Source: Candidatus Omnitrophota bacterium
Lineage (GTDB): Bacteria > Omnitrophota > Omnitrophia > Omnitrophales > Aquincolibacteriaceae
Assembly: GCA_022709525.1 (NCBI GenBank)
Contig: JAKLIQ010000006.1
Span: 2,708-66,707 of the forward strand
Length of the DNA: 64,000 nucleotides
Direction of reading: 5' to 3'
Shown here: piece by piece, positions 2-20,952 of the stretch
How the letters are laid out: every line of letters starts with the position of its first letter
Numbering within the stretch: the first letter of the stretch is position 1
Notes under the pieces: model-generated
The model's input: the letters and a program-made list of their open reading frames with translations, nothing else
The model's database searches: none
What the model was told of the DNA's origin: nothing
Translations under genes and position numbers: made by a program

Positions 2-280
2 GGGTTTTTACCGATCGAGCGGGCCTGGATGGACAAGTGGGTTGCCGACGGGCAGGTGGATATTTTCCGCGAATTCCATAAAGAACCGGGGCATTACAGC
101 TGGTGGGACCTGAAATCCGGCGCCCGTGACCGGAATGTCGGCTGGCGGATCGATTATCATTTTGTGACCCAGGATCTTGTCCCGAAGATCAAAAGCGCCA
201 CGATTCTTCGGGATGTGATAGGGTCGGACCATACACCTGTTTTAATAGAATTAAAACCGGGAATCGGGACTCGTTCCTAG
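2..280 (+). CDS. Exodeoxyribonuclease III (EEP family) C-terminal fragment, 5'-truncated by the window edge. The last 5 codons and the TAG stop come from a GGGACTCG repeat.
   Basis: ORF open from nt 2. Tail ...RDVIGSDHTPVLIEL matches the ExoIII/APE C-terminal SDH[AT]PV motif. Ends ...KPGIGTRS* inside repeat 260-337. Confidence 0.55.
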   Translation, partial: GFLPIERAWMDKWVADGQVDIFREFHKEPGHYSWWDLKSGARDRNVGWRIDYHFVTQDLVPKIKSATILRDVIGSDHTPVLIELKPGIGTRS

Positions 281-337
281 GGACTCGTTTGGGCTCCTCG
301 TTTTACAAGGGGCGAGTCCCGAGCTACGAGTCCCTAC
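260..337. repeat. GGGACTCG palindromic miniature element: two direct GGGACTCG units, a spacer, then two inverted CGAGTCCC units.
   Basis: gggaatcgggactcgttcctagggactcgtttgggctcctcgttttacaaggggcgagtcccgagctacgagtccc. Confidence 0.85.
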
Positions 338-345: not shown

Positions 346-804
346 ATGAATTCACTCAAAAAACAAATACTCATCAACGCTCCGCTTGAAAAGACCTGGG
401 CGATCCTTGCGGATGTGTCGCGGACACCCGAATGGGTGGACGGCGTCAAAGAAAGCGAGCGGACCGGCCCGGTGCGCGAGGGCAAAGGCGCGCGTTGGCG
501 CGAAAGCTGCGTCCTCGACCGTCAACACATCGAAGTCGAGCACGAAATGACCGTTTGGGAGCCCATGAAGAAAGCCGTCATCCAAAGTTCGCTTCCCATG
601 AACGGCTCGATGACGCGGACGCTTGTCCTGCATCAAAAGCCGGAAGGTGTTGAGATCTCCGTGGAATTTGCTTGGGACCTCGGGATCGCCGGGATGATCT
701 TAGGAGAAGAAAAAGTTCGCAAGATCCTCGATCAAAGCTTTACGAATACGCTCGCCAACTGGAAAGATTTAGCAGAAAAACCGGGACTCGGGACTCGTTC
801 CTAG
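346..804 (+). CDS. SRPBCC (START/Bet v1/polyketide-cyclase fold) family protein. C-terminal ...KPGLGTRS* is supplied by a repeat.
   Basis: 152 aa. Bet v1-like pattern (INAPLEKTWAILADVSRTPEW...). Stop TAG lies inside repeat 782-849. Confidence 0.55.
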   Translation: MNSLKKQILINAPLEKTWAILADVSRTPEWVDGVKESERTGPVREGKGARWRESCVLDRQHIEVEHEMTVWEPMKKAVIQSSLPMNGSMTRTLVLHQKPEGVEISVEFAWDLGIAGMILGEEKVRKILDQSFTNTLANWKDLAEKPGLGTRS

Positions 805-849
805 GGACTTGTTTTTGGTTTCTCGTCTTTTTTCGAGGGGCGAGTCCCT
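782..849. repeat. GGGACTCG palindromic miniature element between convergent genes.
   Basis: cgggactcgggactcgttcctagggacttgtttttggtttctcgtcttttttcgaggggcgagtccc. Confidence 0.85.
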
Positions 850-854: not shown

Positions 855-2966
855 TTAAGCGGCTTTTTCGGGAAGTTCCTGCGACAGCATCTCGGAAACA
901 AGATTCTCCAGAAGCGCCAGGAATTCCGGGTTTTTGGCGGACTGGTACAGGTTCGGGTTCAAGGCGATGATCCGGTAAAGAACGAGCGAGATGGGCCGTT
1001 CCGGCAGCACCACATACACACCGCTTTTATAACCTTCCTTCATGATCGCGAACGGGAATTTTTTCGCGAATCGCTGGAATTTCGGGGTTTGGTTCATCAG
1101 CGTATCCAGATCCTCGACCTCAAAACGCTCGATCCCCCGGGAAGCCAGAAAGATCTCGGGAACTTCCGCGAGAGGCACATCCTGGACCAGAACGAGAAAA
1201 TCGTTGCTCTTGACGATCCCTTCGATCAAGCCCGGGACTTTTTCATCTTCGAGAAGTCTCTTTAAAATACTGACCTGCGAGACCAGCATGGCTTTGCCGT
1301 GAACGCCTTGGATCCTTTCAAACCAGCCGCGGACGATACGAAGCTGTTCCGCGCCCCCCAGGAGCTTGAATGATGTCTCGTCGAAGGTTGTGGCGGGAAG
1401 CGCCGCGCGGCGCGTGGCGGTCTGTGAAAGGGGGGAATTTCCGGTGAACGCGGCCACGGCTTTGCGGACATCGTTGGTCGCGAGAAGGACTCCATAGCTT
1501 GCTTGGAACCTATCGTCGAACCACTCAAGCGCATTTCGGAGTTCCGAAAGCGTCTGATCTTTCACCCTGTCGAGACCCGGCCTTAACCCTGTAGAGACCG
1601 GGTCTCTGAGGGGTCCGCCCATTCTTTGGGCGTAAAGCTTTTCATTCATGGAGGCGCCACCAAGGTCCGGGGCGACGGTGATATAAGAGATCCCCGACTC
1701 TCGGAATTTCTGGGACAATCCGTCCGTATGAAATCCGCCCGTGACGACCGCGATATTGCCGGCCAAAGCAGGATCGTTCATGATCTTTTCAAAAAAGATA
1801 TCATCGCGTTTTTTGACCGTGTCGTAGAAATCAAGCGACAAGACAAGCTCCTCGGCCAGACCGATCCCCGCCAGCTCGGGCTCAAGCGCGATCTTTTCAT
1901 TCTCGTAGATCTTAAGGTCTTTCGGCATGGCTTTAAGGAGCAGCAACCGTTCCGCCAGGTAGAACCGTTCGGTCTTATCCCATAGGGCCTGTTCCTCGGT
2001 GGTTTTGATGAGCTTTTCAAGGACGCGGCCGGTCAAAATTTCGATCTGGGACATCAGATCTTCGAGAGAAATACGGTCCTGTAACTGGTAAATGCGGTTC
2101 AGTTTTTTGATCTCGGGGTAAAGGAGCATTTTCTCTTCCGGGATCTTGCCGCCGCGGACCAGCTCCTCGAGATTCCAGGAGGAGTTCTTGTATTTCTGCA
2201 TCAGGTCGCGGACTTCGGCCTCAAGCCGCTCTTTCGAGACTGATTTTTCTTCCGTCATGATCTCCTGAAGAAGCGCGATCTGGTCGAGGTCGGAGTAAAT
2301 GGCGCCAATACTTTCCGCAGTTTTTAAAAGCAAAGGAAAAAATTTGCCAAGGTCCGAAGTTTCGCGGAATTCTCCGAAGGCCTTCCCGAAATTCTGAAGT
2401 TCCGGCCCCCAGACCGATCCCTGGGAATTTTTTAACGAAGCGCCGTAATCAAGGAGTTTTTGGCGGATCTCCGGCTCTTTTTGAAGATGGGCGAGGAATA
2501 GCTGGCGGTTCTTTTCATACAAAGCGGCGTCTTCCATCCCGATGAGCATGATCGGTTCGGGCGACATGATCGCGGCATGAACGGGTCCGGAGATTCTATC
2601 GTCCTCCAACAGTGCATTAGCAAGAAGCATTTTCTCGCGCGAAGTTGGGATCGCATGGCTTTTGGGAAGGGAAGTTGAAGACCAGGCGCCTTCAAGCGCG
2701 GCTTTTTCAACGCCAAAGACGGTTCGCAGCCGCTCTAAAAGCGCCGCGATATTCTGCTGCGCGATCATATGCGCGTGAACATCCTGGATCTGGATGATGA
2801 TCCTCGGGCTCCCGCCGCCAAAACGCTCCTGAACCTTTCCGATCCCTTCAGGCGCCGCAAAATCGGCAAGGTCCGGAAGAGCTTCAGCTGTTTGCGCGCC
2901 GGCGACGGGGGAAAAGATCAAGGAAAGGACAAGCGAGGCAAAAAGAGGTTTGAAGATCATTCTCAT
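855..2966 (-). CDS. Stand-alone paralogue (703 aa) of the giant-protein N-terminal domain. Secreted or anchored TraB/GumN/Tiki-like domain protein plus a C-terminal extension.
   Basis: N-terminal signal MRMIFKPLFASLVLSLIFSPVAGAQT. Motifs IIIQIQDVHAH...LEGAW...VVTGGFHTDG...ISYITVAP are collinear with giant 1 (LIHIQEAHAN...LLEGAG...LITGGFHTDG...SSYIGITP) and giant 2 (LIVHLEDAHG...VEGGLG...LITGGFHSEG...VSYVRIAP). GGAGG lies 5 nt upstream of the ATG. Confidence 0.8.
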   Translation of the reverse strand: MRMIFKPLFASLVLSLIFSPVAGAQTAEALPDLADFAAPEGIGKVQERFGGGSPRIIIQIQDVHAHMIAQQNIAALLERLRTVFGVEKAALEGAWSSTSLPKSHAIPTSREKMLLANALLEDDRISGPVHAAIMSPEPIMLIGMEDAALYEKNRQLFLAHLQKEPEIRQKLLDYGASLKNSQGSVWGPELQNFGKAFGEFRETSDLGKFFPLLLKTAESIGAIYSDLDQIALLQEIMTEEKSVSKERLEAEVRDLMQKYKNSSWNLEELVRGGKIPEEKMLLYPEIKKLNRIYQLQDRISLEDLMSQIEILTGRVLEKLIKTTEEQALWDKTERFYLAERLLLLKAMPKDLKIYENEKIALEPELAGIGLAEELVLSLDFYDTVKKRDDIFFEKIMNDPALAGNIAVVTGGFHTDGLSQKFRESGISYITVAPDLGGASMNEKLYAQRMGGPLRDPVSTGLRPGLDRVKDQTLSELRNALEWFDDRFQASYGVLLATNDVRKAVAAFTGNSPLSQTATRRAALPATTFDETSFKLLGGAEQLRIVRGWFERIQGVHGKAMLVSQVSILKRLLEDEKVPGLIEGIVKSNDFLVLVQDVPLAEVPEIFLASRGIERFEVEDLDTLMNQTPKFQRFAKKFPFAIMKEGYKSGVYVVLPERPISLVLYRIIALNPNLYQSAKNPEFLALLENLVSEMLSQELPEKAA

Positions 2967-3221
2967 GGCGTTCCTCCGTTGGCAAGGATATATATAACGC
3001 AGAACCTGTTTAAAATCAACAAGTTATGCCTATTTTTTCATCCAGAAGCTCTATTTTCTTATATAGCAGAAAATAGCAATATTATCTAATAAACCGCTTC
3101 TGGGAAATATATTGAGCATGGGTTGTTAAATACTTTTTCAACCCCTTGAAATTTGAGAAACTTGTGTTACCTTTCCCATGAGTTTTCTCAATTCCAGGTT
3201 CCGAAAGGGCAAGATCAACGC
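2967..3221. promoter_or_regulatory. AT-rich divergent promoter region between the 703-aa paralogue (-) and giant gene 1 (+). Contains the GTGTTACCTTT motif (3164-3174) also found upstream of giant gene 2.
   Basis: About 35% GC against about 55% for the flanks. Small inverted repeat ctattttcttatatagcagaaaatag. Motif is shared with 36021-36031. Confidence 0.4.
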
Positions 3222-6200
3222 ATGGATTGTCTTAAGAATTTAAGGCGGTTTTTGGCGGGTATTGTCGCCTTCACATTCTTCGCGACGAACACTCTCACCC
3301 CAACTCCGAGCGCCTATGCGGCGAACGTAGAGTCTCCGTCCTTTGTTTCTTCTTTTAAGATCCCCGCAGAATTCGGCAAAGTCACCGATATTTTCTTAGG
3401 GACTCGGGACTCGTTCCTAGGGACTCGTAGCACAAAGAACTCAAACGAGTCCCGCGTATTAATTCATATCCAGGAAGCCCACGCCAATTATGACGCCCAG
3501 AAGAATATCCGGAATATCCTTGAGTATTTATCCCAAAATTACGGTATCAAGCTCGTCCTTTTAGAAGGCGCCGGGAACAAACTCCAGCCCGAACTTTTCA
3601 GGTTTTTCCCGCAGGACGCGGAACTTCAGCAGGCGGTGAATGACAAGCTGATGGAGATCGGCGAACTGAACGGCGCGGAAGTGTTTATGATTGAAAATAC
3701 GGGACTCGGGGCTCGACCCTTGGGACTCGATAAAACTAGGAACAAAAACGAGTCCCTAGTCCCTAGTGACGAGTCCCGCTCCGAAAGCGTTGCCGCTTTC
3801 GGTGTTGAGAATACAGCCGCCTATGTCAAAAATCTCGCTAGCTACCGGGAGGTTTTTGAAGGACGCAAGATCGCGGATGATTTTCTCGGAGCTTTCTATA
3901 CCCGATGGCAGAGATCGGCCGACCTTTCCATGAATAAATCCCTGCGCGAATTCCTGGGCCGCGAGACGGCATTCGAAGAGGATCGCGTTCCGCTCCAGGA
4001 TTGGCTGGAATCCTTGAAGAAAACGGCTTCCCGGGAGCTCGAACTGGACCTTGATAATGTTCGCGTGCAAAACGACTGGCCCGTGCTTGTCCGCTACTTT
4101 CGGCTGAAGCAGATCGCCCCGAAGATCAATGCGGCAAAAGCCCGGCAGGAAAAAGAAGTATTTTTACAGGACCTCAAAGCCCGCCGGATCCCTTCGGAAC
4201 TCCTTCAGGAGATCACAAAACTCCTCGAGCACAAAAAAGACGGGGACCTTCCTCCTTACAAAACCCGTTTTGCCTTCGAAAAACTCATGGATCTTCTGCC
4301 GACGGATTATTCGTTCGAACAATACCCCAATTTTAAGCTGCATCTCCAGCAGTTGATCCTTTTAAGCGAGCTCCAGAGCGATCAGCTTCAGGAAGAGATT
4401 GCGAAGCTCACCGAAAAACTCACAGTCCGTCTTACTCAAACTGAAAATGATAAACAACTCGTCGCGGTTTTGCATGATTACCGCCTTGTTAAAAAATTAT
4501 TTCAGCTCGAATTGAATCGTGGTGAATACCAGCAGCTTTTATCCCGCAATGTTTCACCCGCAAACATTATTAAGGGACTCGGGACTAGTTCCTCGGGACT
4601 CGGGAATCCAGGAAAAACGAGGAGCGAGTCCCGAATGACGAGGCTCGAGCTTCTCTACGGGACGGCAATCCGGTTTTACGAGGGAGCGATCGAGCGTGAG
4701 CATTGGATGATGCAAAAAGCGCTCGAGCGGATGCGGGAACGTAAACAGGCCAAGGCGGTCCTGATCACCGGCGGTTTTCACACCGACGGCTTTAGGGAAA
4801 AGATCCTCGCCGGCGGCAGTTCCTATATCGGGATCACCCCGCGCATCGGCGAGATCACCGCTGATTCTCAGAAGAATTATATTCAAACCTTGTTGGGTTT
4901 GAACGGGACTAGCGCCTCGCACCTCGGGACTCGTAAAAACGAGGAACAAAAACAAGTCCCGAGTCCCGAGTCCCGAGTCCCTGTCGCTGTAAGCGACATC
5001 GCTGCCACCCCTCGCTCTGACATCCGGCTCATGGCGGAAACGGGAGCGCTCGATCACTCCTTAAGCCGCATCGAGGCCGCCTCGATCGACATCGTTGCTT
5101 CTACTCGTCCCGAAAACCGCGAAACCTACCAAGCCCAATTAACCCAAGGCATTCAAACCATTAAAGACGAAGTTTTTAGTGGGCCAACTTCTACCGTACG
5201 CGCCGAAATGCGGAGAGCAATCAGGGTCGAGATTCCGGAACAGGTGAATAACGCCTTGAATTTGGAGCAATACCTTCGCAGTCTTTTGGGTAAAGCGGAG
5301 TACGGAACGCAAAATGTAACGCTCGAAGCGATCGCCGCGGGTGAATGGCGCATTGTCCTCGTTACCCAAAAAGGAGAAACGATCCCTACTTCCAATATGG
5401 CCCTCGCAAGTTCGATTCTTTCCGAGAAGGGCTATCATAACGGCATTCGCGATCTTCAAGCTATTGAATTCCATCCTCGCTCCGAAATGCGGGAGCGGAT
5501 CCTGCTTGTCGATGACAGCGAATCGGACCGCGCGCTCTTTCGGGTTATCCTGGAAAGCAAAAAGTATGAAGTGGTTGTTGTTGAAAGCGCCGAAGAAGCT
5601 CTCGAAGAGTACGCAAGAGCCAAAAAAGAAGGGAAGCCCTTCGCTGCCGTTGTTTCTGATTGGAATATGCCGAAAATGAAAGGCGACGAGCTGGCGCGCC
5701 GGATCACGGACGTGCCCTTTATCCTTCAAAGCTCGAACATCCTTGAGGACGGCACCGCGGAGAACCCCGCCGAACAGAAGATCCTGGATGAACTGGCCGC
5801 CTTAAACCCTTTTTTCAGGACCCATTCCAAAAACGAGCTGGGATTTTTGGCCGAGAAGCTGGCGGGACTCATTTTTGCCGCGAAACCCCCCGTTTTAAGC
5901 TTTTTGGAAATGCACAGCGCATTTACCGCGATCGCCAAAGAAGCCGCCGGCAACGATGATCTTGTCAAATTCATCAATGATAAATGGGAGCCCTTTTTGA
6001 CCACGGGCCCACTCACGAAAACAAAAGAGAAACCTTTAAAAACCGGGCAGGACTGGCAGCAATATTTCCTGAAATTGGGCCGCTTGAACCACGACCCCGA
6101 TATCGCCGCCGAAGCCTACAGACGCTTTCAGGCAATGGTGAAAAAAAATACAGGCAAGGAGTTGCCGCCCTTGCGCGAGGGGCCCCGCCAGCGTTCTGAA

Positions 6201-9200
6201 ATACGCACAACGGCAAAAAAAGCTGCTGATGCAAAACGAACCATCAAAAATATCGCGGATTATGTTCGGCCCGAACAAGGACAGAAAAAAGGGATCGGAA
6301 AGATCACGATACCTTATTACAAAGGCGGTGTCGAAATCAGCTATCGATTCGAACGTCTTAAAGAAAAAAAGAAAGAAATTATCGAAGTTTTCAAGAATTT
6401 GATAGCGGCTTTGGAACTCGAAGCTGAGGAGGAGCCGGAAATAGGCAGGCATTTTGAAGAGGGTATGAGCCATCAGGACCTCGTAGGCGTTTTCCGTTAT
6501 GACTTGGAGCAGAACCATATTTTTATGTTGCTTGCTTGGCTCAAAGCGTTGGGATTTCTGGACCTTTCCCCGACCCAGCAGGCGCTTTTGGAAAAAATGA
6601 AAGAAACTAAAAGCGCAGACAAGATCAAGCTCTACCCTAGAATCTTAAATATTGATTTAAAAGTTTTAAAACCCGAAGTTGAAAAATCGAGCGTCACAAG
6701 AGAAGCCGAAGAAGAGGATCTCGAGCCGGACGCAAACGACCTTGAAGGCGAAGACGCGGAAGCGCGCGCAGAAGTCAGGGCCTCTCAACCTGCCGGGAAA
6801 ACCGGTTTCGGCATCTTTTATCGTTTTAAACTTGCCCTGGCCATCGGGATCATCGGACTCTGGTCCGCGATCATGGCGCGGGCCCAGACCGTATTTCCCG
6901 GCAAACCTTACCTCGAGCATTACGCGGGGCTTTCCGGATCAGGGTCGATCGCGCAATATAGCAGCGCTCATTTCAAATGGAATTTCCGCATTTGGAACCC
7001 CGGCTACTCATTAGCCGTTTATAATTTTGGAACAACCGCTCAAGGCCCGCAAAATCTAAGCGGTTACACCAGTTTTAGTTGGGACGTCCGCTCCTACATT
7101 AACAACACCACAGGCCATCAGGGTGTTTTCCGGGTCGAATTCAAAGACACGGACGGCGATATCGCCAGCAAGACCGTTAGCGGCATTTATAGCAACTATC
7201 AGACCGTTACGATCACTTTGGCGGAACTTCTCGCCAGCAATCCTGCCTACAACCCTCAAAACACCAAAGAGATCGTTTGGGTCGCGGACAGCAATGCTTA
7301 TATGCCAGATGACTATGAAGGGTGGGCTGAATTTAAAACGGGCGGGCTTTTCTTCACCACGAATATTTCTCCCAACGCCTCTTATACCCTTTATGACACG
7401 ACCGAGCTTCCCGAAGGGACCGAAGGCGCGGTGGACCCTGTCACGGTCTATCCCGTCGGCGCGTCGGTGACAGCCAGCAATCAGGACCACGGGATCGCGT
7501 TCACTTATAACACGGGCGGCCAGACATGGGCCGGCGCCGGCATGGCGTTCGATGATTTCGGAACAGTACCTGTCGGCACAGGGGATTTGAGCGGTTTTTC
7601 GAACCTTGTTTTTGGCATTAAGGCCACCGGGACCACGCAGCTTAAGATGGAAATCGTGGATAGCGCCGAGAACAAGGAATATGTCTACTTAAACGGCATG
7701 AATGCCGGGTACCAGACATGGGTCATCCCGATGAGCTTTTTTGCCGGCATCGATCTTGAGAACGTCAAAGTCATTTATTTTATCGTCGAGGGCGCAGGCA
7801 AAAGCGGCACCGTCTCTATTAACCACATTCCCGAGACGATTGACATTACTGGCGTCAGACGTCAGCAAAATAATGATGTCGTCACTTTTTCAAGCATTTC
7901 AGGGCTTACCTATCGCGTGGATCAGAGCGCGGCCGGCCTTGTCAGTCCGAATTGGCAGACAGGCGCCACCACAAGAGCTCTCGGCCCCTCCGCGACGATC
8001 ACCAACAGCACCGGGTCTTCTTCTAATACCGTTGTGACACGGGTGATTTATAACCGTTCTGAGGCGAGGGAAGAAAAAACCCCGGCCTATAAGATCAAGT
8101 CGGAAGAAGTAAGCGTTTATGATCCGTCTAGTCCGAAAAGCGAGCCGTATGCCGTCGCCATGGACCTTGTTGAAGAGGTCCGGATATCCGAGACAAGAAC
8201 AGTTTATTTCAAAAAAGCCGCTTTTGAGGAGGCCTATGAAATTTATCTTAAGGGCGTGCCCAACGCTCTCGGCCTTTTGAAAGAAGGCGTCAGGACCCGA
8301 ATAGGCGATCTTCCGTTCCGTTTTATCGCCCGGGAAGGAAAACTGATCATCCTGGCGGAAAAACCCGGCATTGTTGTGATGAAGAAAATCCCGCAAACAG
8401 AAGCCGCGATAGCCAAGAAAACGCCCTTAGCCGCGAAAGCGCCGCTTCGGATCAAAAAATCCGAACTTACCAAGATCCAGGGAGAGGGAAGGAGCCGCTC
8501 CGAAGCGCGGCTTGATATCGAAAAGGAAATGTTCAAAAGTTTTTCGGAGCTTTCTTCCGACCTGCGGGTAAAGCTCAAGACCGAATGGAGCCGTTTCAGG
8601 CGTTTCGGCGGCAACTCACTTGAAAAAGCGCTGCGTGAAGACAATGAGGCGGGCGTTTTAACCCTCCTGGAATATTACTGGGAATTCGTCGGGGAGAAGA
8701 TCGTGCCTCCCGATGTCCTTTCCGGCAAGGTATCGATGGTGGCCCTGTCGCTGACCGGGGCTTGCGTTATGGGGCTCGTGGGTCTGACAGAAATACCGGT
8801 CCACGCCTTATTGATCAACCTTTCGATCTGGAGTTTTATCGCGGCAAGCGGTGTGTTCGCGGTTTCTTTGGCCGGAAGCCTTATTGGCAATCGGATGAAA
8901 CATAGCGAACTGGCCCGCGTCGATCACCTCATCAAATTAATGAGAGAGCTTATGGTCCGCCGGAACCATCTCCCCCTTTCGACTTTGGAGGAAAAAACGC
9001 TTTCGGGCGCATCTTCCGGCGCTCCCGTCGAAGCGGTTTACCGGCCGCCCCGAATGATCCAATTTTCGGAGCCGTTTGTGGAAGGCGAACGTCCCGGTAA
9101 AAGACCGCCTGAAGTGGAACCGCCTGCCCGTGCCGAACTAAGAGGTTTTGGATTCGATGTTCCGGATTGGGCCGTTGGAAGCGCTTCGAACTACCTCAAG

Positions 9201-12200
9201 CTTCAGGGTTTTGAGGAAACGGATCTTCGCGACGCAAAGGTTTTGGTCAAGAAAAGATCTGACGGAATGGTTTACAATGTCACGCTTCCTTCCGAATTTT
9301 CGCAGCCCTTTGACGCTTTAGACACGCTTCTTAAAGAGATCGAGATATTAGAAGTTTCCCAGATCAGCCACATCGAAGTTGAAAGCCGCGCGTACATCCT
9401 GAAACACTTACTTGCCATAGCCCGGGGGTATGACCAGGAAGCCGCCCAAAAGGCCGGTGCGTTGCTCCGAAGACTCAATAAGCCCCATTCAGCCGCCGCC
9501 GCGATGGAAGAAGCCAAAAAACTTATTTCATCGTCTCGATCCGAAGCAAGAGCCGCCGGAACCGAAGAGAATCCCGCTTTTGAAAAGATCAGAAAGGCCG
9601 TCGTGGAGCTTGCTTTCGAATTGGCCCAAAAGCCGTGGTACAAGGTCCCCAAGGCCGGAGAAGATTTTGACGCGATGGTCAGGATCTTGTCGGAGCACAA
9701 CCAGAAAAGGATCCTCGGGATCGTCGCCTCAAGGATCGAACAATTCGCCGGCGAGATCAGAAGGTCCATGAAAGACGGTTCCACCTGGAAAATGCTCCGA
9801 AGCCGCTATGAGACGGCGCTTGACGCGTCGCGGAAGGTTTCCGGGGCCCCGTCCTCTCTTGAGGAACTTATCACGGAAATGCCTTTTGTTTTTGTGGACC
9901 GTATCGTCCAATTCGGGAAGGCACAAAGGCCTCTCGAAGAAAGATTGGCGCAGGCCGTAGAAGCGCTTGCTGAGATCCAGCGGGGTTCTTACGGATTGGA
10001 GAACGCAAAGACGGCGCATGAGCTCGAAACCAGACTCAGCCGCCGCGGCAGCGAGAGATTTATGGATGTCCTGGAAAGCGCGGAAGATTTCTCTCGCGCC
10101 GTCTTATCCCAGCGCTCCGAAGTCCGCGACAACACCAATACCATTGACGGCTATACGGTCGTCAGCCGCCAACTTGAAGCCGGCCTTGACCGCAGCATTC
10201 TTGAAGCTCTTAACAAAAAACTAAGCCGCCGGTTCCCTAATCTGGGGCATATGATCCGTCGTTATGTGGGGCTTGTCGCCGAAACAACGCTGACGGGCGG
10301 GTTGGGCGCGTTGATGCATGACCTTTTTCCGGCATGGGGGAAGAATTTTGGCTCCCAGGAAAAACGCGAAAAGGACCTTGTGGCGATCAATGTTGTTTAT
10401 GAAAGCATCAAAGGGCAGCGGTATGCGAAGTATTTGCCGGCGGAGATCCAGGAGGGAAGAAAAACGCTCGGGGATTACCTGCGCGGCGTTCTCAAATCCG
10501 ATAAAAGTCTCAGTCTTTCTTTTGAGCTCGAAATAGGGGACGATTTTAGAAGGAAGGCCGCCGACGAAGAGCGTTTTGCCGCCTCGTATGGCAGCGCCGA
10601 ATACCGTGTTTTCGCCCATAAAGCCAAACAGATCATCGGACAAAAGATCTATGTGGAGGTCTATCCGACCGAAACGCATTTTGGCCGTGTTCCCAACTAC
10701 TATGTGGACGCCTATTTTATTGACAACGAAGGCGAAAAAATCAGCATTTTTGACGAGGTCTATCCCGACGCGCCGCATGGGCACCCTAATTTGTGGCGCG
10801 ATGTCCATATGGCCGTTTACAGTTTGGCAAGCCAGCATCTCCTGGAAAAGCTTCGCAGGAAAGGCGTTGTTAAGAGCAAATTCCTTTTTGTGGATAACGA
10901 AGTTTTTGTCAGCACGCCCACGCCCCTTTTCCCCGACGCGATCCATCATCACGTCAACCACACGGTTTTCCGTCCCGGGCTTTACATGCCGGATGAAGCT
11001 TCCTATGAAATGCTCGGATTCCCGGAGGTGCAGCGCAAATACATCGTCAAGGACGGGAAGATCAACATCATTGATGCCGTCGGGATCTCTTCCCATCTGA
11101 TCACCGGGGTCGCCTTGTATGAACACACACCGGTCCTGGCCAAAGACATCATGGCGGCCCATGTCCATAAACTCGAAAGTTACAACAAAGAAGGCGTCCG
11201 CAACACCAACGGGGTTTATCTCGAACAGTGGCAATCGCCCCTTTTGACGGATCTGATCAGCCAGTACAAAGCAAAGATCGGCTTGGAGCCGGAGGATTCC
11301 AACCAGGCGTTCTATCGAGAGATCCAGAAAACCACCCACGCGAGGATCCTGGAAGAATTCGAAGAGAAAGCGGAATTCATCAAGGCGGTCCATGCGGCCG
11401 AACTCCTGCTTTGGCTTAAGGAAGACCAGAATTATTCTCTTTGGTTCGATGAGATGCTCGAAGCGTTTCAGGGCCAGCGCGGCGTTGCGGGCGGGGAATG
11501 GCATCTTGATATCGCTGACGCGGGGAAATTCGTCGAAGGGTTCCGGCAAGCCGTTCAAGATGCCGTCATAGACCCGGCGGGGTGGCAGCACTTCAAGGCG
11601 GGCCCCATGTTCTTCCTGAAAGAACTCCTCTTGCGGGAGCCCATCATTTCCAATGTCCGTCGACAGGTTTCTTATAAAGGGCCGGATAAATGGCTTGAGA
11701 TCTTAAGAAAACTGCAGCGCGATCCTCACGCCTTGGCTCAGTTCAAAGAAAATGCTCCCCGCGTTATTCTGGGCGGACGCGAATTTGGCGAAGAGGCGCA
11801 CGGCATGTTTTTAGAGATCCAAGGCCTCATCAGAGCCCTTGGGTTGCAAGACCGTTTCGCGACCGTCGACGACTACAATAACTACATTGCCCCGATCATT
11901 TTCCAGGGCGTTTCCGGCTCCGTGATGCTTTCCGACGAATTCCTGGAAGCTTCCGCGACCAGCATGATGAAGGCGATTGCGAACGGGGCGGCTCTGATCG
12001 GGGTTTGGGGCGGAGCGGATCCCGAGATCTTCACGATCGTTGATCATAAAACAAAACGCGAGCTGGATGTTTTTAAAGACCATGTCACCCATGACGAACT
12101 CGTTAAAAATCTAAGAACCGGCGCATGGAAGATCACGAACGGTTTTCTGATCGAATATAGCTCTCAAGAGAACAGCACGCAGCCGGGAGGGGGAAGGCGT

Positions 12201-15200
12201 CCGTCCGCCGATTCGCTTCTTCGCGCTCTTTTAGACCTGAACGAGCAATACCAGGATCCGGAAGCGAGGCGCCGGCTTCAATTCAATACGCTCGCATCTT
12301 CTTTAAAGGTCGATATGGCCGAAGGGCAAGCGCTGGCCCACAAAATGTTGTGGGAAGAGGCGATCAGGATCCTTCAGGAAGAGGACAAGGTTTTTGAAGG
12401 GCTGAAGATCTCCCAAGAGGACTCGGAGGCCCTTCTTTCCCGCTCGATCCGCGGCCAAGGTATTGTGGATTTTATCGAGGAATTCCGTTATCTGCGCATG
12501 AAGGGCCGTGAAAGTTACGACCGGGTCGCTTTTTACGCGACACAGGGGCTTCAAGGGAGCATTTTTGGTTTTCTCAATGAATTTTTTAAAGATTTTGACC
12601 ACACGCTCGAACCTGTCATCCGCAAGATCCATGAACTTTCCGTTCGCGCCGAAACCACGACCAACCTTCAGGAGAAAGTCATCGCCAATCTGGAAGCTCT
12701 GGAGATCGTGGAGCGGCTCACGGTGGAAGTTTCCGTCGCTCTTTTTGAGCATTATGTGCTTTCCGGGGATAAGGCGCTCGAACCGTATCTTGCCAAGCCG
12801 ATCATTCGCGAGAATCTGGCCCGCTATTTCGATGAACACGCAGTCGCGCTTGAATCGATCGCTAAAAAGATCCCGGGTTATACCGTTTCAATAGGCGATA
12901 AAAATTACCTCGTGGCACTAAATCTCGGCGAATTCAGTTACGTTGGCCCTTCGGGAGAAAAAGCGCGGGGCGATTTTTACGGCGAAGAAGGCATTAAGGC
13001 CCTTATTGGGGAAGAAGCGGCCAAAAACGATGCGAGCATTTTCCAGCTTGTGGATGCGATCACAGATCAGCGTTACGGCACTTATCCCGTCTGGAAGATG
13101 ATGGAAAGATTTCCGATCGGCGTGCCTTATCCCGGGGTTCAAGTTCTTCGCGTCGAAGATACAGGCCAGCAGTCGGAAGAAAAAGAAACAAGGCTTCGCA
13201 ACGACATTCTGCATTATCTCGAAGCCCTGGCCAACAATCGCCTGGTGAGCGATGGAAAACCGATCACTCAGTTGCTGCTCCAGAAGATCCAGACGGTTGT
13301 GGAGGATCCGGCCAAGCTTTCCAAAATGCTCAAGGTCGTGGCTAACCTCTCTCGCGAAGAGGCCATTGTCAAGTTTACCCGGGGCGGCGTTCCCGCAGTC
13401 ATGGCTTTTATCGCTATTTTGTCGCCGGAACTGCTTGAAGATGTCAAACATTGGAATCCCGATGTTTATAAAAAACTAAATGCGGTGATCCAAGATCCCG
13501 CGTTTGAAAAGAACTTCAAAGAAGGGAAGATCTGGTTCCATAAGGTGGACCGCGACAGCGCCCTTGTCATTTCAAGGAACCTGCCCGGACAGGATATCCC
13601 GCCCGTGATCGTCCCGATCCATTTCCCGGACAGGCCTTACCGCGCCGATGACGGAAAAGCCTGGTTCAGGTTGCTTGATGTGCGGAATTTAGGCGTTGAG
13701 AACTCTGACAAGATCGAATATCAAGTTTATGACGCCATCCTTCAAAAGGCTTATGAGCCGAAAACCGGCGCCAAGCTTCATAGCGAAAAATGGCATTTAG
13801 GCGTTCCCGTTGAGGGCGCGGGGTACCGGTTTCAAATCCTACAGGTCCAACTCGTCAGCGCCGCCCGTTCGGAAACCCGCGGAGTAAGCAATGAAGAAAC
13901 CGAGGAATGGACAAAACATATCAATGACTGGATTAAGCATACCCCTGAAAAAGTACTTATTTTGGGGCTGGGGTTTGTGGGTCTTACAAAGCTTGTACTC
14001 GGAGTGACGGATCATGGATGGGATGCTGTCGGCCTGGAAATCGTTCCCTCCAAAGCGAACATGATCTCGCAAGGCGGAATGCCTTTTTTTGCGGACATGA
14101 TGGAGCCGGAGTATGATAAGGAAGGGAAAATGAAAGATCCAGGCCTGCTTCAAACCGCCATCGAAAGCGGAAGATTTCATGTTACCTCAAGCTACGACGA
14201 AGCTCTGAAAGACCCCGAGAGAGACATTATTTTTCTCGCCGTTCAAACCCCTCAAAGCAACGATGGACGGGCGGATACATTTTATCTTGAATACGCCGTG
14301 CGAGAAGTCGCGCGAAGGACTTTCAGTTATCCCAGAATCATTGTAGGGAAAAGTACGGCACCTCCCAAAACTACCGTGGAAAAACTCAGAATCTCTGTAG
14401 AGGAAGCTCGCGCAGAGAGAATGCAGGAAGTTTTCATCAAACAGCTTCATGACGCATCAATGCAGACAGAAAGATCCGGGGACGAGGCAATCTTCAAATT
14501 AGTACAAGGCTTTCTTTCGGAACAGCTTATAAAACAAAAAATGGTTTTAGATTCCGAAAAATCTTACCTGGAAGCAGTAAGCCGGGAAGACTGGGCGGGC
14601 GACGTCAGACGAACAGAAAAAAAATTAAGAACAATTCATAGGGATAATCCTGAAAATATTAAGACGACCCTTGATTTACTTCGCGAGACAATCGGAGAGG
14701 GGAAATTTAATTCTCTTTTCAACAGCAAGGAAATTTTAGACCAAACAATCCCCATTGAATTTGCTTGGGAACCGGAATTTTTACGTGAAGGAAAAGAGGT
14801 CGTCGACGATCGTGGAGAAGCCGGGCGCATAGTGATCGGAGCCGAAAACCTTAAGGCGGCGCAAAAGGTCAAAGCCCTCTACGAACATTATAACCCCAAT
14901 CTGAATCCCCCTCGTCAGCAAGTTCCTATTGTTATCACAGATCTTGCAAGCGCTCAAACCGTCAAGTATGCCGCTAATACTTACCGCGCGATAAAAATAT
15001 CTTTCATTAATTATATCGGCTGGCTTTGTCAGGTGATGGGTTACGATGTGAATAAGATAGCAGATATTATAGGAATAGAAGGCAATGTTCGAAGGGCGTT
15101 TTTAAATGCAAGTCTTGGTTTTGGCGGATCGTGTTTTCCTAAAGATTTGGCGGCTTTTGTTAAATTATGTAGGGAGCTTGGCCTTTTACCCAATTTGGTA

Positions 15201-18200
15201 TTAGACGCTCTTGCGGTCAATGAAGTTCAGATAAGGAGGTTCGTGAATTTAATTGTCAAACAATTAGACGGCGTCAAAGATAAAACCATTGTTGTGCTTG
15301 GCGGTGCTTTTAAACCCGAAACGAGCGATACGCGAGATTCCAGAGCCGTTCGCGTCATGCAGGATCTGTTGCAAAAAGGAGCCAAGATCAGGGTTGTAGA
15401 TCCTAAAGCTATACCGGAGCTTCAAAGAATGTTTAAGGCGTATCCCCCCGGAGTCATTGAATACTTCGAGAATTTAGATGATTTTGAAAACGTCTTTAAA
15501 GAAGCAGACGGCATTGTACTCGCTACAGAGTGGGAAATATTTAGAGATAAAAGAATAGATCCTAAAAATGGAAAAATGGATTTTGAAAAAATAGCGGCAC
15601 TTTTTACTCATAGACAGTCACTTCCTCATATTTTTGACGGCCGAAACTTATTTGAAAGAAAAGCAGTTAAAGAATTTGGCTTTTCGTATATTGATATTGG
15701 ACGCGCCGAATTACTTAAATCAGACAAAGAACATGTCGCATTTGCAAAACAAGTCAAAGAAGTTTTTCTGGCAGGGAGAGTTTCTCATATCAATGATGTC
15801 GCAGAACTTGCAGAGAAAACCGGAGCCAACGCCTTGGATATCCGAAAAGGATTTGGGTTAGATCCCGTCGTCGGAGAGAGCTATTTAGATCCCGGCATTG
15901 GTTGGGGCGGTCATGACCTTGTGAATTCGCTCCGAGCTCTTGAGAAGCAATCTTGGGATAATATTAAAGATTTGTTGGATGAATATCGCGAAGCCAGGAA
16001 AGATTTTATGAAGCAGTTTGGTTTTAGCGAAAATGAGTTTCCTGATGACGAAAACAGAGTTCCTTTCGTAACAGCTAGCCGCGAAATCAACAAAAAGCAG
16101 ATCGGACTTTATTTAAATAAGGTCAAAACTATTTTAGGCCCTGATCTTAACGGAAAGGACATAACGCTCATCGGTTTGGCCTATAAGATCGGCACTTATT
16201 CTCTCGAAGAATCGCCTTCTATTCATCTCATCGAGGCTCTTTTGCAAGAAGGGGCGATCGTTCATATTGCGGATGAAAATCTTGCTGCTACCGCCAATAC
16301 GAAGGATTATTTTAGCAGATTTCAACACGGAAAATTCGTAGAAAATATTCGCCTTTATAACAATCTTTCCGACGCAATTGTCAATGGGAAGGATTTGCAA
16401 GTTTTAGTGAATCTTTCAGAACGCTACTCTGAAGAATCAGAATGGGCAAAACTCGGATTAAAGAAAGTTTTAGACGCCAGACATTTTTTTAATGATCCGG
16501 TTTCTCTTAAAAAGACGGGTATCAGTTATTTTGCTTTAGGGATACCCGAGGTGAGTTTAGCTGAGGAAGAAGTGTTGAGGCAAAGGGAAATGGAAAGTCG
16601 CGCTGTTCTGAGCCAAATGCAAAAAGCGATTGTCTTTTATAAAGACAAAGTTATGATCGAAGAAAGGGAAGATGAAACATATAAAGTTACCGCATTTGTA
16701 AAAATAGAGGATTCCTGGCTACAAAGAGCCGATTTTTATATTTTTTATGGACCTTATCCCCATGAGCGTCAAACTTTTGATTGGTATGCCCAAGAAGTTT
16801 TGGGCGGGAACATTCGAAAGATAGAACAAACACCCGATTTTTATCAGATCAAACTTATTATCTCACCTAAGAACAATTTTCCAGCTGTTGAGGGGAGGTA
16901 CGGCCTTACCCTTTTTGCCGTTCCTAAAACCATGGCAGAAACGGATCCGGGTTTTCGAAAAGTTCGGTTATGGGCCGCTAAGCCTTTTGACGACACTCCC
17001 TTTATCGTACGTCGTACCGAGCGTTCGGAGCTGCGCAGTCCCGTGGAGGATTTCAGGGCGGAGATCGAAGCGGGCAAAGTCACATTCATCATGTTCAAAG
17101 AAGACGCAGTGAGGGGCCGGAACGAAGAGGGATTGATGGTTCCTCAAATGCTCGAGCGGCTTAGAGACCACGGGTTTGAATTGGTGTATCTTGGCGCTCA
17201 GACCGAATTTACTCAGGAACAGGCCCGGGAGTTTTACGCGGTGCATCAGGGCAAGTGGTTTTATGAACCGTTGGTCCAATACATTACTTCAGGGCCCGCT
17301 ATCCCCGCGTTGGTACGGTATCATGGAGAAGGCCCGGCGGTTCAGGCGATCCGCAGCATTCTGCCGTCGTTGCGCCAGGAGTTCGGGATCGAGAAGGGGG
17401 ATCCGGAGCTCAAAAAAGTTGAACGCAACAAGATCCACGCTTCCGATTCACCCGAGAACGTGTTCTATGAAGGCGCGATCGCTTTCCGCTCCGAGCTCCG
17501 GACGCTGGATGTCGAGGCGCTCGTTGCAACGATCGCCGAACCGGTCTCCGCGATCGATCTTTTCAAGAAAATAGGGCAAAATTCCGCCTTAAGGCAGATC
17601 CGCGCTCTGAAAGAACAAATCATCAAGGCATCTTCCGAGTTCAATCAATCCAAACGCCAGGCCGAAGAAGTCCAGGAGATCGGCGATCTGGGGCTCAAGA
17701 TCGCAAAGCTTCTTTCCCAGGAAAATTATTCTCCCGAAAAGACCCAAGGGATCCTTCAAAAGGCGGTTTCAGAACTTTCTGAGGCGTTGGGGCTTATTCT
17801 TAGATTGCTGACTTACGCGGCAACGGCTAACACCAAAAGTATCCAGCCGTCGGTTTCCGTTGAAGCTCAAAAAATGGTCAAGAAGATCGAAGCGGCGATG
17901 GAGCGGCCTGCGCGCGAAAAGAAAGCTACGGAAACGGCGTCTCCCCGTTCCGAACTGCGGAACGTCGCGGCGCTGATCGCGACAGGAGTTGAGGTCAGGA
18001 CGCCCGAGGAATTCTTCCGGCGCAATCTCGAACAGGGCGGCGGCCATGAACAGGGCGTCCGGAGCGTTACGGAAAAGGTCATGGATGGGATCTATTCGCT
18101 TCTGGCTCATAGCTTTGATGCCGCAAAAGTCATTTCCTCCGCTTTCTTTCCGGAAGCTTATGCTCAAGAGATGTTAACCATGGCTTCCAAGCCCGAAATG

Positions 18201-18698: not shown

Positions 18699-18745
18699 TC
18701 CAAATACCGGGACTGGGTCTGCCTGCCGGCCAGGCAGGGACTCGT
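18699..18745 (+). terminator. GC-rich hairpin immediately after the giant 1 stop. Candidate intrinsic terminator, merged into the repeat complex.
   Basis: gggtctgcctgccggccaggcaggg (ctgcctgcc / ggccaggcag stem). Confidence 0.3.
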
Positions 18746-18882
18746 TCCTCGCCTGGCTCTCATTAATTCTTTATTGGAAGCCAGCGCAGCGCTTTAGTGC
18801 GGGACTTGTTCGGTCTCTCGTTTTTATTTTACGTTTCCCGAGTCCCGAATCCCGTTTTACGCGAATCGGGATTGCGTTATAA
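18705..18882. repeat. Composite array of GGGACTCG-family units and variants (GGGACTTG, CGAGTCCCGAATCCCG).
   Basis: ...cagggactcgttcctcgcctgg...gcgggacttgttcggtctctcgtttttattttacgtttcccgagtcccgaatcccgttttacgcgaatcgggattgcg. Confidence 0.7.
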
Positions 18883-18892
18883 TCCCTCCCTT

Positions 18893-19774
18893 ATGACTAA
18901 CTTTAAAACAATCCCGATTCGGATAGGCCACAGTCCGGATCCTGACGATGCGTTCATGTTCTACGCCCTCGCGCATGAAAAAATTGATATGCGCGGTTTT
19001 AAAGTAGGGCATGTGATCGAAGATATCGAATCCCTCAATCAGCGCGCGCTTAAGGGTGAACTTGACGTGACGGCGGTTTCCTGCCACGCCTATGCTTATC
19101 TTGCGGACCGCTATGCCGTCATGCGTTCAGGAGCAAGCGTGGGGGATAATTATGGGCCGATTCTTGTTGCCCGGGACTCGTCCCTCGGGACTCGTCCCTC
19201 GTTTTCTGGTAAAAAGATAGCCGTACCAGGCAAGTTGACGACAGCGTTTCTTATTTTCCAACTTTTTCTGGATGATGTTTTTAAAAAAACAAGTCGCGAG
19301 TCCCGAGTCCCGAATTTTGTATTCGTTCCATTCGACAAGATCTTTGACGCCGTAAAGAACGGCGACGCGGACTACGGTCTCATCATCCACGAAGGTCAGA
19401 TCACGTATCAAAAACACGGCCTTGAAAAAACGGTGGATCTTGGAGAATGGTGGCATAAAAGAACAAAACTGCCGCTGCCGCTCGGGATCGATGTGATCCG
19501 AAAAGATCTTGGGCAGGAAACCATAAGGTCTTTCGCGGCGCTTTTTAAGGAAAGTATCGAATACGCCTTGAACCACCGGAAAGATGCCTTAGAATACGCA
19601 AGCCGGTTCGGCCGCGGCATTTCCGAAGACCTGAACGACCGGTTTGTCGGGATGTACGTGAACGATCGGACGGTCGATCTCGGCAAGGACGGCGAGGCGG
19701 GCTTCCGGCGGCTTCTAGATGAGGCTTATCGCGCCGGGATCATCCCGGAGAAGGTGAAGCTGGAATTTATATAA
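18893..19774 (+). CDS. mqnD: Menaquinone (futalosine pathway) MqnD/MqnA-family protein, probably 1,4-dihydroxy-6-naphthoate synthase. Carries two in-frame repeat-arm insertions.
   Basis: IRIGHSPDPDDAFMFYAL, GELDVTAVSCHAYAYL, GPILVA, KIAVPGKLTTAFLIF, DYGLIIHEGQITYQKHGLEKTVDLGEWWHKRTKLPLPLGIDVIRKDLG all match the MqnA/MqnD (PBP-like) family. The start is taken at MTNFKT; the track ORF opens at 18797 inside the repeats. Confidence 0.6.
   Translation: MTNFKTIPIRIGHSPDPDDAFMFYALAHEKIDMRGFKVGHVIEDIESLNQRALKGELDVTAVSCHAYAYLADRYAVMRSGASVGDNYGPILVARDSSLGTRPSFSGKKIAVPGKLTTAFLIFQLFLDDVFKKTSRESRVPNFVFVPFDKIFDAVKNGDADYGLIIHEGQITYQKHGLEKTVDLGEWWHKRTKLPLPLGIDVIRKDLGQETIRSFAALFKESIEYALNHRKDALEYASRFGRGISEDLNDRFVGMYVNDRTVDLGKDGEAGFRRLLDEAYRAGIIPEKVKLEFI
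19172..19205. repeat. Solo left arm of a GGGACTCG element (2 units) in frame in mqnD, encoding RDSSLGTRPS.
   Basis: cccgggactcgtccctcgggactcgtccctcg. Confidence 0.75.
19291..19315. repeat. Solo right arm (CGAGTCCC x2) in frame in mqnD, encoding SRESRVP. About 85 bp of native mqnD sequence lies between the two arms.
   Basis: aagtcgcgagtcccgagtcccgaatttt. Confidence 0.75.
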
Positions 19775-19780: not shown

Positions 19781-19859
19781 GGGACTAGGGACTCGGGACT
19801 GGGGACTCGCTTTGGTTCCTCGTTCATTCGAGTCCCGAGGTGCGAGTCCCGAGCAACGA
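19781..19859. repeat. GGGACTCG palindromic element in the intergenic gap before 19867.
   Basis: gggactagggactcgggactggggactcgctttggttcctcgttcattcgagtcccgaggtgcgagtcccgagcaacgag. Confidence 0.85.
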
Positions 19860-20875: not shown

Positions 20876-20952
20876 CGGGACTCGTTCCTCGGGATTCGTA
20901 CCTCAAAAATGAGAAACCAAAACGAATCCCGAGGGGCTAGTCCCGAGTCCCC
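20876..20952. repeat. GGGACTCG-family element (GGGATTCG variant) between GIY-YIG and the SemiSWEET-like gene.
   Basis: cgggactcgttcctcgggattcgtacctcaaaaatgagaaaccaaaacgaatcccgaggggctagtcccgagtcccc. Confidence 0.8.

Follow-up and report, generated by a model that had tools for sequence, protein, structure and literature searches.

Why do short palindromic repeats lie in frame inside bacterial genes, and are they read there as protein? The question is raised by a 64,000-nucleotide stretch of DNA from a Candidatus Omnitrophota bacterium (assembly GCA_022709525.1, contig JAKLIQ010000006.1; the whole stretch is called the window below), in which copies of one palindromic repeat lie in two giant genes, in a menaquinone gene, at gene ends and in spacers. 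[quoted passage not shown] Based on a survey of the window, alignments of the copies, comparison with orthologues and structure models, we consider it probable that the family is a selfish or neutral, translated palindromic repeat, analogous to RPEs, whose in-gene copies would have been filtered by selection to in-frame loops and whose arms would be exchanged between lineages like cassettes by recombination.

Anatomy and distribution of the repeat

The motif GGGACTCG occurs 47 times in the window, compared to 2.56 ± 1.53 copies expected from dinucleotide-preserving shuffles, none of which (0 of 100) reached 47. A map of the window places all 47 copies in about 15 tight clusters, with no scattered singles, and these clusters are confined to three regions (0.2 to 5 kb, 18.7 to 22.5 kb and 37 to 38 kb), leaving 40 kb without any copy. 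The corresponding elements, about 15 in 64 kb, comprise eight that are internal to genes, four that lie over gene ends and three in spacers (Table 1), so that one repeat family occupies both spacer and intragenic locations and 12 of 15 copies lie within coding sequence or overlap it. The giant genes are therefore not the sole hosts: the repeat is also found in the MqnA-family gene, at gene ends and in spacers, and, as described below, the phenomenon extends through Omnitrophota with many heptamer families. Independent assemblies from JGI, NCBI/ENA and Logan agree at 99.99 to 100% identity over the element regions and thus exclude assembly error. Neither Rfam at gathering thresholds nor a tRNA scan of the window gave a match, and a scan of a viral collection gave none either.

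The strong over-representation of a short motif, with inverted pairs behind genes and in-frame copies inside them, also recalls the DNA-uptake signal sequences DUS and USS, which are found in frame within genes and, in terminators, as inverted pairs. Yet the tight clustering with its empty 40 kb, the tandem 7-nt lattice with a conserved centre and the coexistence of several unrelated heptamer families in one genome all run against such a role, and we find it scarcely credible that GGGACTCG is an uptake signal.

Alignment of 13 copies in a common orientation gave a consensus element of 11 heptads on a 7-nt lattice, about 77 bp long, with individual elements ranging from 55 to 77 bp. The left arm reads GGGACTC GGnACTC GnnCCTC GGGACTC, the centre GTTTTnG TTCCTCG TTTTTTC and the right arm GAGTCCC GAGTCCC GAGnnAC GAGTCCC. 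Arms usually contain two or three GGG tracts with other heptads between them. Within 160 nt, the order GGGACTC followed by GAGTCCC occurs in 14 transitions and the reverse order in none; this fixed arm order marks the element as a true unit with polarity and not a chance pairing of arrays. Single-strand folds reach −18 to −42 kcal/mol, with z values against shuffles from −1.4 to −7.6 and mostly between −2 and −5; the predicted hairpin is imperfect, with about 15 to 25 bases of each arm paired.

The heptameric build invites the view that the repeats arose in place by slippage and act as contingency loci, in which gain or loss of 7 nt would switch giant surface genes on and off. A unit of 7 is not a multiple of three, runs of up to four perfect units exist (4953-4982 and 37984-38009), the giant-gene copies all lie near the 5′ end, and heptameric GGGNATC repeats vary in copy number in Xanthomonas and Nostoc (PMC4692102). 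Against it, the aligned copies have in common non-repeat heptads (for example GTTCCTA) as well as the T-rich centre, which makes them homologous to one another rather than products of local slippage; likewise, slippage alone cannot explain the 22-mer GGGACTCGTTCCTAGGGACTCG, identical at 266, 3406 and 37023. Most arms hold just one or two adjacent perfect units, elements also occur in a housekeeping menaquinone gene and in spacers, and no copy-number difference was seen among the independent assemblies. Slippage as the origin of the elements is accordingly improbable. We also considered CRISPR-like and G-quadruplex-only readings and set them aside.

Table 1. Elements, arms and host genes in the window (positions in window coordinates; z values of folds are relative to shuffled sequences)
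Feature	Position	Strand	Remarks
e259, compact element	259..334	.	upstream Exo_endo_phos gene ends in the left arm, which gives it its final codons ..PGIGTRS and its TAG stop (278-280); −39.3 kcal/mol, z −3.9
e783, compact element	783..848	.	between convergent genes; ..PGLGTRS and TAG stop (802-804) of the Polyketide_cyc2 gene 346..804
703-aa paralogue of the giant N-terminal domain	855..2966	-	no element inside; insertion-free reference
Giant gene 1	3222..18698	+	5158 aa as called; open reading frame 3153..18698, 5181 codons; four elements in first 1.8 kb
Giant-1 element 1	3399..3453	+	LGTRDSFLGTRSTKNSNESR; modelled-domain residues 33-51; pLDDT<50 at 36-48
Giant-1 element 2	3701..3777	+	GLGARPLGLDKTRNKNESLVPSDESR; residues 134-159; fold z −3.7; pLDDT<50 at 136-160
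Giant-1 element 3	4574..4632	+	GLGTSSSGLGNPGKTRSESR; residues 425-444; pLDDT<50 at 430-440
Giant-1 element 4	4905..4981	+	GTSASHLGTRKNEEQKQVPSPESRVP; residues 535-560, post-domain linker; fold z −3.85; pLDDT<50 at 534-600
Long composite copy, spacer between giant gene 1 and MqnA-family gene	18709..18853	.	GGGACTC-type arms enclose a separate conserved hairpin motif, 18750-18790; fold z −3.8
MqnA/MqnD-family menaquinone gene (PF02621)	18893..19774	+	host of split element; copy missed by the original prediction
MqnA split element, left purine-rich arm (site 2)	19173..19206	+	RDSSLGTRPSF; coil, model residues 94-107
MqnA split element, right pyrimidine-rich arm (site 3)	19286..19311	+	KTSRESRVP; coil, model residues 130-140
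Compact element after MqnA-family gene	19781..19850	.	intergenic; fold z −3.45
e20471, compact element after 199-aa gene	20471..20547	.	entire element read on the minus strand; gives a GIY-YIG protein (20459..20866) its C-terminal tail
e20877, compact element	20877..20951	.	last codons ..KKRGTRD* of a 94-aa gene (20937..21221, minus strand); −41.6 kcal/mol, z −7.6
e22406, compact element	22406..22481	.	intergenic, between divergent M24 peptidase and transketolase genes; fold z −5.0
One-armed CCACAGA-family array	33672..33705	+	final ~13 codons of DHFR gene (..KATVHSHRTTDHG*), past the end of the Pfam DHFR domain at residue 145
Giant gene 2	36049..56841	+	open reading frame of 6930 codons
One-armed CTCAGTC array in giant 2	36342..36361	+	position of giant-1 element 1
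Second-family palindrome in giant 2 (CAGACCA ... AGTCTTA)	36609..36696	+	position equivalent to giant-1 element 2
Giant-2 split element, left arm	37023..37044	+	identical to arms at 266-287 and 3406-3427
Giant-2 split element, right arm	37138..37165	+	pairs with 37023-37044 across ~95 nt of native sequence; fold z −2.2
Giant-2 compact element	37455..37531	+	GLAPRDSLLEKTRGQAESRIPSSE; site equivalent to giant-1 element 3; fold z −1.4, weakest
Giant-2 compact element	37988..38051	+	PRDSGLGTGFKNESLGTSDKSR; in frame

Copies inside genes and at their ends

The four elements of giant gene 1 were recovered within a few bases of the coordinates first proposed, and the Gly/Thr/Arg/Asp/Ser-rich peptides attributed to them are borne out by the uninterrupted reading frame and its translation. 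In a three-way alignment the giant-1 elements correspond to gaps in the 703-aa paralogue, whose lack of elements was confirmed by mapping GGGACTCG. Orthologues of the giant N-terminal domain extend this picture, the four element positions being indel hot-spots: the orthologues P0122-P0124 have gaps at these positions, while P0127 carries GGGACTC-type inserts despite an identity of just 35% and the insert peptides of P0125 and P0126 correspond to other heptamers. Orthologues of the 703-aa paralogue across Omnitrophota have almost no such inserts. In one further giant-domain orthologue, which comes from another metagenome (L135, 183-2273, minus strand), inserts of the GTACGGA type, at three sites, and of the GGGACTC type stand in the same protein.

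Mapping onto a structure model led to the same places. In the AlphaFold model of the giant-1 domain (mean predicted local distance difference test score, pLDDT, 73), all four elements coincide with coils of pLDDT<50; seven segments of the model fall below this value, the other three being the N-terminus and two 4-residue stretches. Thus modelled, the element-encoded peptides lie in surface loops compatible with the fold. For giant gene 2, the original count of four to five copies is right only if single arms or other heptamer families are included, as we find two compact elements and one split element. The notion of insertions into a conserved fold likewise holds for the extra segments themselves, which face gaps in the paralogue and in orthologues, and fails as a general rule of simple insertion, given that arms may be split and native residues replaced: at the giant-2 left arm, for instance, native DGKIDxxK is replaced by EGLVPRDS with a net gain of 1 aa.

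The N-terminal domain of about 600 aa that both giants have in common, and that also stands alone as the 703-aa protein, has no Pfam match and bears the motifs HIQEAHANYDAQ, LLEGA and VLITGGFHT. A Foldseek comparison of this domain with the PDB gave nothing significant, and its weak matches to erythromycin-esterase-like BcR135 and EreC serve as a lead only. Beyond this domain, giant gene 1 encodes Response_reg, UDP-glucose dehydrogenase and NDK domains.

The MqnA-family gene shows the split arrangement most clearly. The two arms of its element lie in two different loops, with about 80 to 90 nt of native coding sequence between them, and this enclosed segment encodes a conserved strand-helix (K-I-A-V-P-G-K-L-T-T-A..) that is present in solved homologues. 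Alignment with the structures 1ZBM and 2CZL shows the protein to be longer at two places and no others, by 5 and by 10 residues, and in its model (mean pLDDT 86) the two arm coils are among the lowest-confidence stretches. The arms pair with each other in the minimum-energy fold (z −3.8), and the duplex of site 2 with site 3 has a z of −4.75 against shuffles.

Two other hairpins lie near this gene. An inverted repeat in its start region (18862-18921; CGAATCGGGATTG ... CAATCCCGATTCG) spans a −10-like TATAAT box, the ribosome-binding region and the start codon; it is also found in L123 (about 9970-10030), there with a compensatory change from A-T to G-C, and could be an operator or a translational control hairpin. 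The motif nested in the composite copy upstream (CGCCTGGCTCTCATT..TTATTGGAAGCCAG) occurs once in the window and matches nothing in Rfam, and it recurs beside a GGGACTC element in another Omnitrophota genome (fen_1321; L101 6462-6494, minus strand).

Are the in-gene copies translated? All eight internal copies are in frame and free of stop codons, even though in every compact copy one or two of the three sense frames are closed by stops; that the six compact copies, taken by themselves, should all be open has a chance of about 0.01. The orientation is constrained as well. Both orientations of the element do occur in the window, as originally described, but translated centres occur in one only, with the A-rich strand as the sense strand in seven of seven cases (six compact in-gene copies and the GIY-YIG tail). 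This orientation yields K/N/E/T/R-rich peptides, where the opposite strand would give F/L/V-rich ones. Constraints on frame and orientation are to be expected only of elements that ribosomes read, from which we infer that the in-gene elements are translated and not skipped. The contrary possibility, that they are removed from the mRNA or bypassed by ribosomes in the manner of the Magnusiomyces mitochondrial 'byp' elements or the hop in T4 gene 60, draws on the stable GC-rich hairpins inside coding sequence and on the fact that translation itself is a prediction from sequence. It needs neither the open frames nor the hydrophilic orientation of the centres, however, and is in our view very improbable.

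At gene ends, the elements supply codons and even stop codons: the TAG stops contributed by e259 and e783 are the TAG of the CCTAGGG heptad junction. The latter element and the stop codon of the 703-aa paralogue are 7 nt apart. In the 13-copy alignment, e259, e783, e20877 and e22406 are flanked by A-runs and T-runs, whereas in-gene copies have no T-run after the hairpin. The copies that abut gene 3′ ends have the same orientation relative to the gene in five of five cases. A terminator scanner that allows loops of only 3 to 8 nt picked up just sub-hairpins. The A-run/T-run-flanked spacer copies are predicted, from their sequence, to be bidirectional terminators or 3′-end hairpins, and probably act as such. 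The GIY-YIG gene, which is flanked by two elements, was considered as a linked nuclease and rejected: it occupies the same syntenic place in the element-free locus L127, which argues against any specific link to the elements.

Other hairpins were seen in the spacers. A non-heptad repeat family (GCCAAACAGCG..GGACCCGCCArCGyTTTGTGGCGGGCAAATTT) is found at 26007-26101 and 27976-28053 of the window and at 13807-14114 and 19764-19841 of L144; it follows GGT and Bax1-I genes and resembles a shared terminator-type hairpin. The spacer between the NUDIX and ArsC genes (26655-26769) contains a long hairpin with 22-nt arms that are 91% complementary and 71 nt apart, and in L123 and L144 this spacer has a GGATGGC-family heptad palindrome.

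Heptamer families and their exchange among Omnitrophota

The MqnA-family gene allowed us to follow the same two loops across the phylum. In the best 120 orthologues (63 to 100% identity), protein length ranges from 273 to 344 residues, and almost all of this variation falls at three sites, where heptamer arrays are translated into the insert peptides. For the 105 orthologues that could be parsed, the peptides at site 3 belong to the families GTACGGA (AYGVRR / SPYSVLRTPY; 23/105), GCGCAAC (ATRNAQRN / VDRCALRG; 17/105), GGGACTC (GLGTR.. / ..SPESRVP; 15/105), GGATGGC (DGGWRMADG / HPPSSILHP; 10/105), GGGAACG (GNGKRETGN / FPVPRSP; 8/105) and GGCCACG (ATGHGPR / WPVVRGPWP; 4/105), and in 26 of 105 the site is empty. 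The families at sites 2 and 3 match in 62 orthologues and differ in about 6. In the DNA of six further MqnA loci, sites 2 and 3 are complementary in five species (duplex z −2.6 to −7.0), and the remaining species, L127, has no MqnA insert and no such palindromes in 12 kb.

Spacers follow the same pattern. The syntenic loci L123, L124 and L144 have palindromes at equivalent positions (behind the MqnA gene and the 199-aa gene, and in the spacers that separate the M24 peptidase gene from the transketolase gene and the NUDIX gene from the ArsC gene), made of other heptamer families, and several families coexist in one genome. Most families have a unit of the form G-N5-C with a CpG at the unit junction, and in most the purine-rich arm is the first of the two and a T-run immediately precedes the 3′ arm; the CTCTAAA and CAAGATC families do not fit, which makes this a tendency rather than a rule. 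Across Omnitrophota the phenomenon is widespread. Not every gene of variable length is affected, however, since the length differences among GGT orthologues come from the N-terminal signal region and involve no heptad inserts. A palindrome of the CTCTAAA/TTTAGAG family, 184 nt long (L144 14934-15117), separates the genes for the transketolase N- and C-subunits, which in the other loci abut or overlap.

Beyond these loci, we scanned a genome collection with the pattern GGGACTCGN{6,13}GGGACTCG, a loose pattern whose matches, among those listed, fall mostly in high-GC Actinomycetota, Lysobacterales and Acidobacteriota and include at least one Omnitrophota locus (L101). Also among the matches listed are inverted GGGACTC-like arrays that flank 30 to 130 nt in Wenzhouxiangella, Gemmatimonadaceae, Terriglobia and Lysobacteraceae (L056, L113, L050, L102, L114, L053), from which it follows that heptad-lattice palindromes of the GGGAnTC type span several phyla. 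A metagenome scan with the specific 22-mer returned 13 loci, too few for a census, with crude stop-to-stop calls of open reading frames that are unreliable.

How do the families come to vary at a fixed site? At the level of protein sequence, heptamer family is almost unassociated with the similarity of the core protein: MqnA cores of one family have an identity of 0.804 and those of different families 0.800, and the nearest neighbour is of the same family for 31 of 105 proteins compared to about 18 estimated by chance. Because a neighbour-joining tree of the cores is too poorly resolved to count replacements, we rely on these family identities and on the closest pairs. The closest pair of all, P0047 and P0050, is 98.8% identical over 251 core positions and yet has different families at both sites; three of its five substitutions lie in the 20 residues between the arms (tract borders being read at the protein level). 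P0069 and P0103 show a similar mosaic. In DNA, L126 and L144 are 87.1% identical in the flanks and 68.6% in the enclosed segment (Fisher p = 0.0012, which is modest given 21 comparisons), whereas L123 and L126, which have the same family, show no drop in identity in the enclosed segment. These sequence comparisons indicate that each arm-segment-arm tract is exchanged as a unit, for which recombination is the simplest means. Such exchange would explain why the two arms usually match and why close relatives have different heptamer families in the same loops.

The 51-nt native segment between the MqnA arms is less conserved in DNA than the rest of the gene in nearly all pairs among the window, L123-L127 and L144, and the protein it encodes is almost invariant. 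Recombination, or a mutation rate that is raised locally in the loop of the long-range stem, could account for its lower conservation.

The reading that we favour can be set out as a series of steps. The family would consist of non-autonomous palindromic repeats whose copies descend from a common source and spread by copy-and-paste or gene conversion. Copies would land in spacers, at gene ends and in genes, and those that survive in genes would be the ones that keep the frame, lack stop codons, fall in a disordered surface loop and present the A-rich strand as sense, so as to encode hydrophilic Gly/Ser/Thr/Arg/Asp/Glu/Lys/Asn/Pro peptides that would be simply translated and presumably neutral. 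In established copies, the arms would stay complementary while gaining and losing heptads, and the arm-segment-arm tract at a site would be swapped between lineages by recombination. Of these steps, the homology of the copies, their in-frame places in loops, the diversity of families and their mosaic exchange are seen in the sequences and models, and the mode of spread, the neutrality of the peptides and any terminator activity are inferred.

Three features set the elements apart from a plain MITE or RPE model: arms can flank 90 to 130 nt of native coding sequence, they can take the place of native residues, and near-identical proteins (98.8%) can carry different families. Several observations weigh against the reading that we favour. 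(i) Split arms and the replacement of residues without change in length are not predicted by a single insertion of a whole palindrome. (ii) The giant genes are 15 to 21 kb long and all their copies fall within the first ~2 kb, which simple random insertion does not predict, and this 5′-end placement is unexplained by any reading. (iii) No target-site duplication is obvious at the borders of the 13 aligned copies, a result without formal test and with borders made uncertain by the partial replacement of native sequence by the arms, and no transposase, RAYT-like gene (RAYT, REP-associated tyrosine transposase) or Y1-transposase domain was found among the scanned genes of the window. (iv) Near-identical assemblies of the same population show no polymorphism in heptad copy number or in presence or absence of elements, and so provide no evidence of recent movement in the population. 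(v) The census in the source genome covers the 64-kb window, and the MqnA family calls were made on peptides with hand-made patterns, with DNA for 7 loci.

A further reading that we hold to be possible, though doubtful, is a hairpin-directed 'overwrite', in which complementary heptad arrays would be laid down at two positions to form a long-range stem around a native coding segment, the resulting cassettes being exchanged as units. If true, this would be a new mode of mobile element, or a programmed mRNA or DNA structure inside essential genes, distinct from cut-and-paste and copy-and-paste transposition.

The main rival to the translated, selfish or neutral repeat holds that the hairpins are selected as nucleic-acid structures, for example as mRNA or DNA stems to which a factor binds, as attenuators or terminators, or as elements that stabilise mRNA, that the coding copies are kept for their pairing, and that the peptides are a tolerated by-product. 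On one hand, much of what we describe would follow from it. The MqnA arms are complementary in all five insert-bearing species despite their unrelated sequences, the split arms pair in the minimum-energy fold, and L124 has a compensatory GGAACTC/GAGTTCC change; this change and the match of families in 62 orthologues as opposed to about 6 mismatches could reflect selection for pairing and also count against the reading we favour. Several families have in common the order from purine-rich to pyrimidine-rich arm and the T-run before the 3′ arm, all five copies at gene 3′ ends are co-oriented, and an A-run and a T-run border several of the spacer copies. On the other hand, about a quarter of the MqnA orthologues lack the site-3 arm and one species lacks any, mismatched pairs of families do exist, the family of the 703-aa paralogue is almost free of elements, in-gene hairpins are not followed by a T-run, and no sequence that a factor could read is conserved across the heptamer families. 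Whole-tract transfer, finally, explains matched arms equally well. Weighing both sides, we think it unlikely that selection on structure is the main cause of these elements.

Relation to known repeats and significance

RPEs are the closest parallel to the Omnitrophota repeat. Nearly half of the 44 RPE copies of R. conorii are intragenic (Ogata et al. 2000, 2002, summarised in PMC10969869). Here as there, a palindromic repeat is found in spacers and in frame in unrelated genes, housekeeping genes included, about half of the copies (8/15) are intragenic, the added peptides occupy surface loops that the fold can accommodate, and neither a transposase nor a known mechanism accompanies them. The RPE-like behaviour claimed by the original prediction thus stands as an analogy of behaviour, as frames are kept, the in-gene copies lie in loops and the repeat occurs inside and outside genes. 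Our comparison is one of behaviour and description, not of sequence, and homology is not expected given the host phylum and the heptad build. The differences are substantial: besides the other host phylum, the Omnitrophota elements are shorter (55 to 77 bp compared to ~100 to 150 bp) and made of tandem 7-nt units, their arms may be split around native coding sequence and overwrite native residues, and at a given loop one of their many heptamer families may stand in for another with hardly any phylogenetic signal, a much faster turnover than that of RPEs.

In their building blocks, the elements resemble the GGGNATC repeats, of which Xanthomonas has 70 to 75 convergent inverted pairs per genome that may form stem-loops (Rehm et al. 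2015, PMC4692102). Those repeats are common just after stop codons, are reported to be under-represented within coding sequence, prefer four units and have been interpreted as G-quadruplex formers (PMC4692102). Both systems use tandem GGG-N-(A/T)-TC units, GGGACTC being one base from the Xanthomonas GGGAATC, and both place units on a 7-nt lattice in inverted pairs, which here is always the case. In contrast to the GGGNATC repeats, over half of the copies described here lie within or overlap genes, the arms are short, interspersed with non-repeat heptads and joined by a conserved centre, and sister families such as GTACGGA and GCGCAAC have no G-tracts.

The original description of the elements as typical of MITEs or REP-like sequences found no support. 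Like REPs and their hairpin-forming pairs, the REPINs, they are short hairpin repeats of lineage-specific sequence that occur in inverted pairs and often follow genes. REPs and REPINs are thought to be copied by RAYT, a dedicated enzyme that recognises the hairpin. REPs are, however, extragenic by definition and carry a GTAG or CGTC tag (PMC3733652), whereas many of the copies here are intragenic (12 of 15 lie within or overlap coding sequence) and are built on a 7-nt lattice that REPs lack; no consistent GTAG/CGTC tag was seen in the 13-copy alignment, though no pattern search was made. MITEs such as ERIC, BOX, Correia, Nezha and the cyanobacterial families can form in-frame fusions, terminators or mRNA hairpins (PMC10969869), and they too are small, non-autonomous inverted-repeat elements. 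They have terminal inverted repeats that match a parent insertion sequence and target-site duplications, neither of which we saw in the window genes or the 13-copy alignment, and only their ends are inverted, whereas the whole of the present element is palindromic and periodic.

A full-text literature search found nothing relevant on palindromic repeats or on the repeat sequence in Omnitrophota, and in the papers on Omnitrophota giant genes that we consulted there is no mention of palindromes, hairpins, inverted or tandem repeats or MITEs. Within the limits of the searchable literature, the elements appear to be undescribed.

To our knowledge, in-frame palindromes in housekeeping genes have for 25 years been an oddity almost peculiar to Rickettsia. 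Seeing such behaviour again in a candidate phylum that is free-living or epibiotic suggests that this is what generally results when hairpin repeats meet compact genomes. With at least six heptamer families, hundreds of orthologues and two loops that are occupied, empty or swapped, Omnitrophota offer a large natural experiment that bears on how new disordered loops enter conserved folds, on how palindromes in coding DNA are tolerated and perhaps used, on hairpins as recombination hot-spots that make genes mosaic, and on the enzyme that copies such repeats, a question that RPEs share. For the genomes of this phylum there are practical consequences as well, in that the elements inflate length variation and break the clustering of otherwise near-identical proteins, and the gene ends and stop codons that they supply affect the annotation of Omnitrophota genomes.

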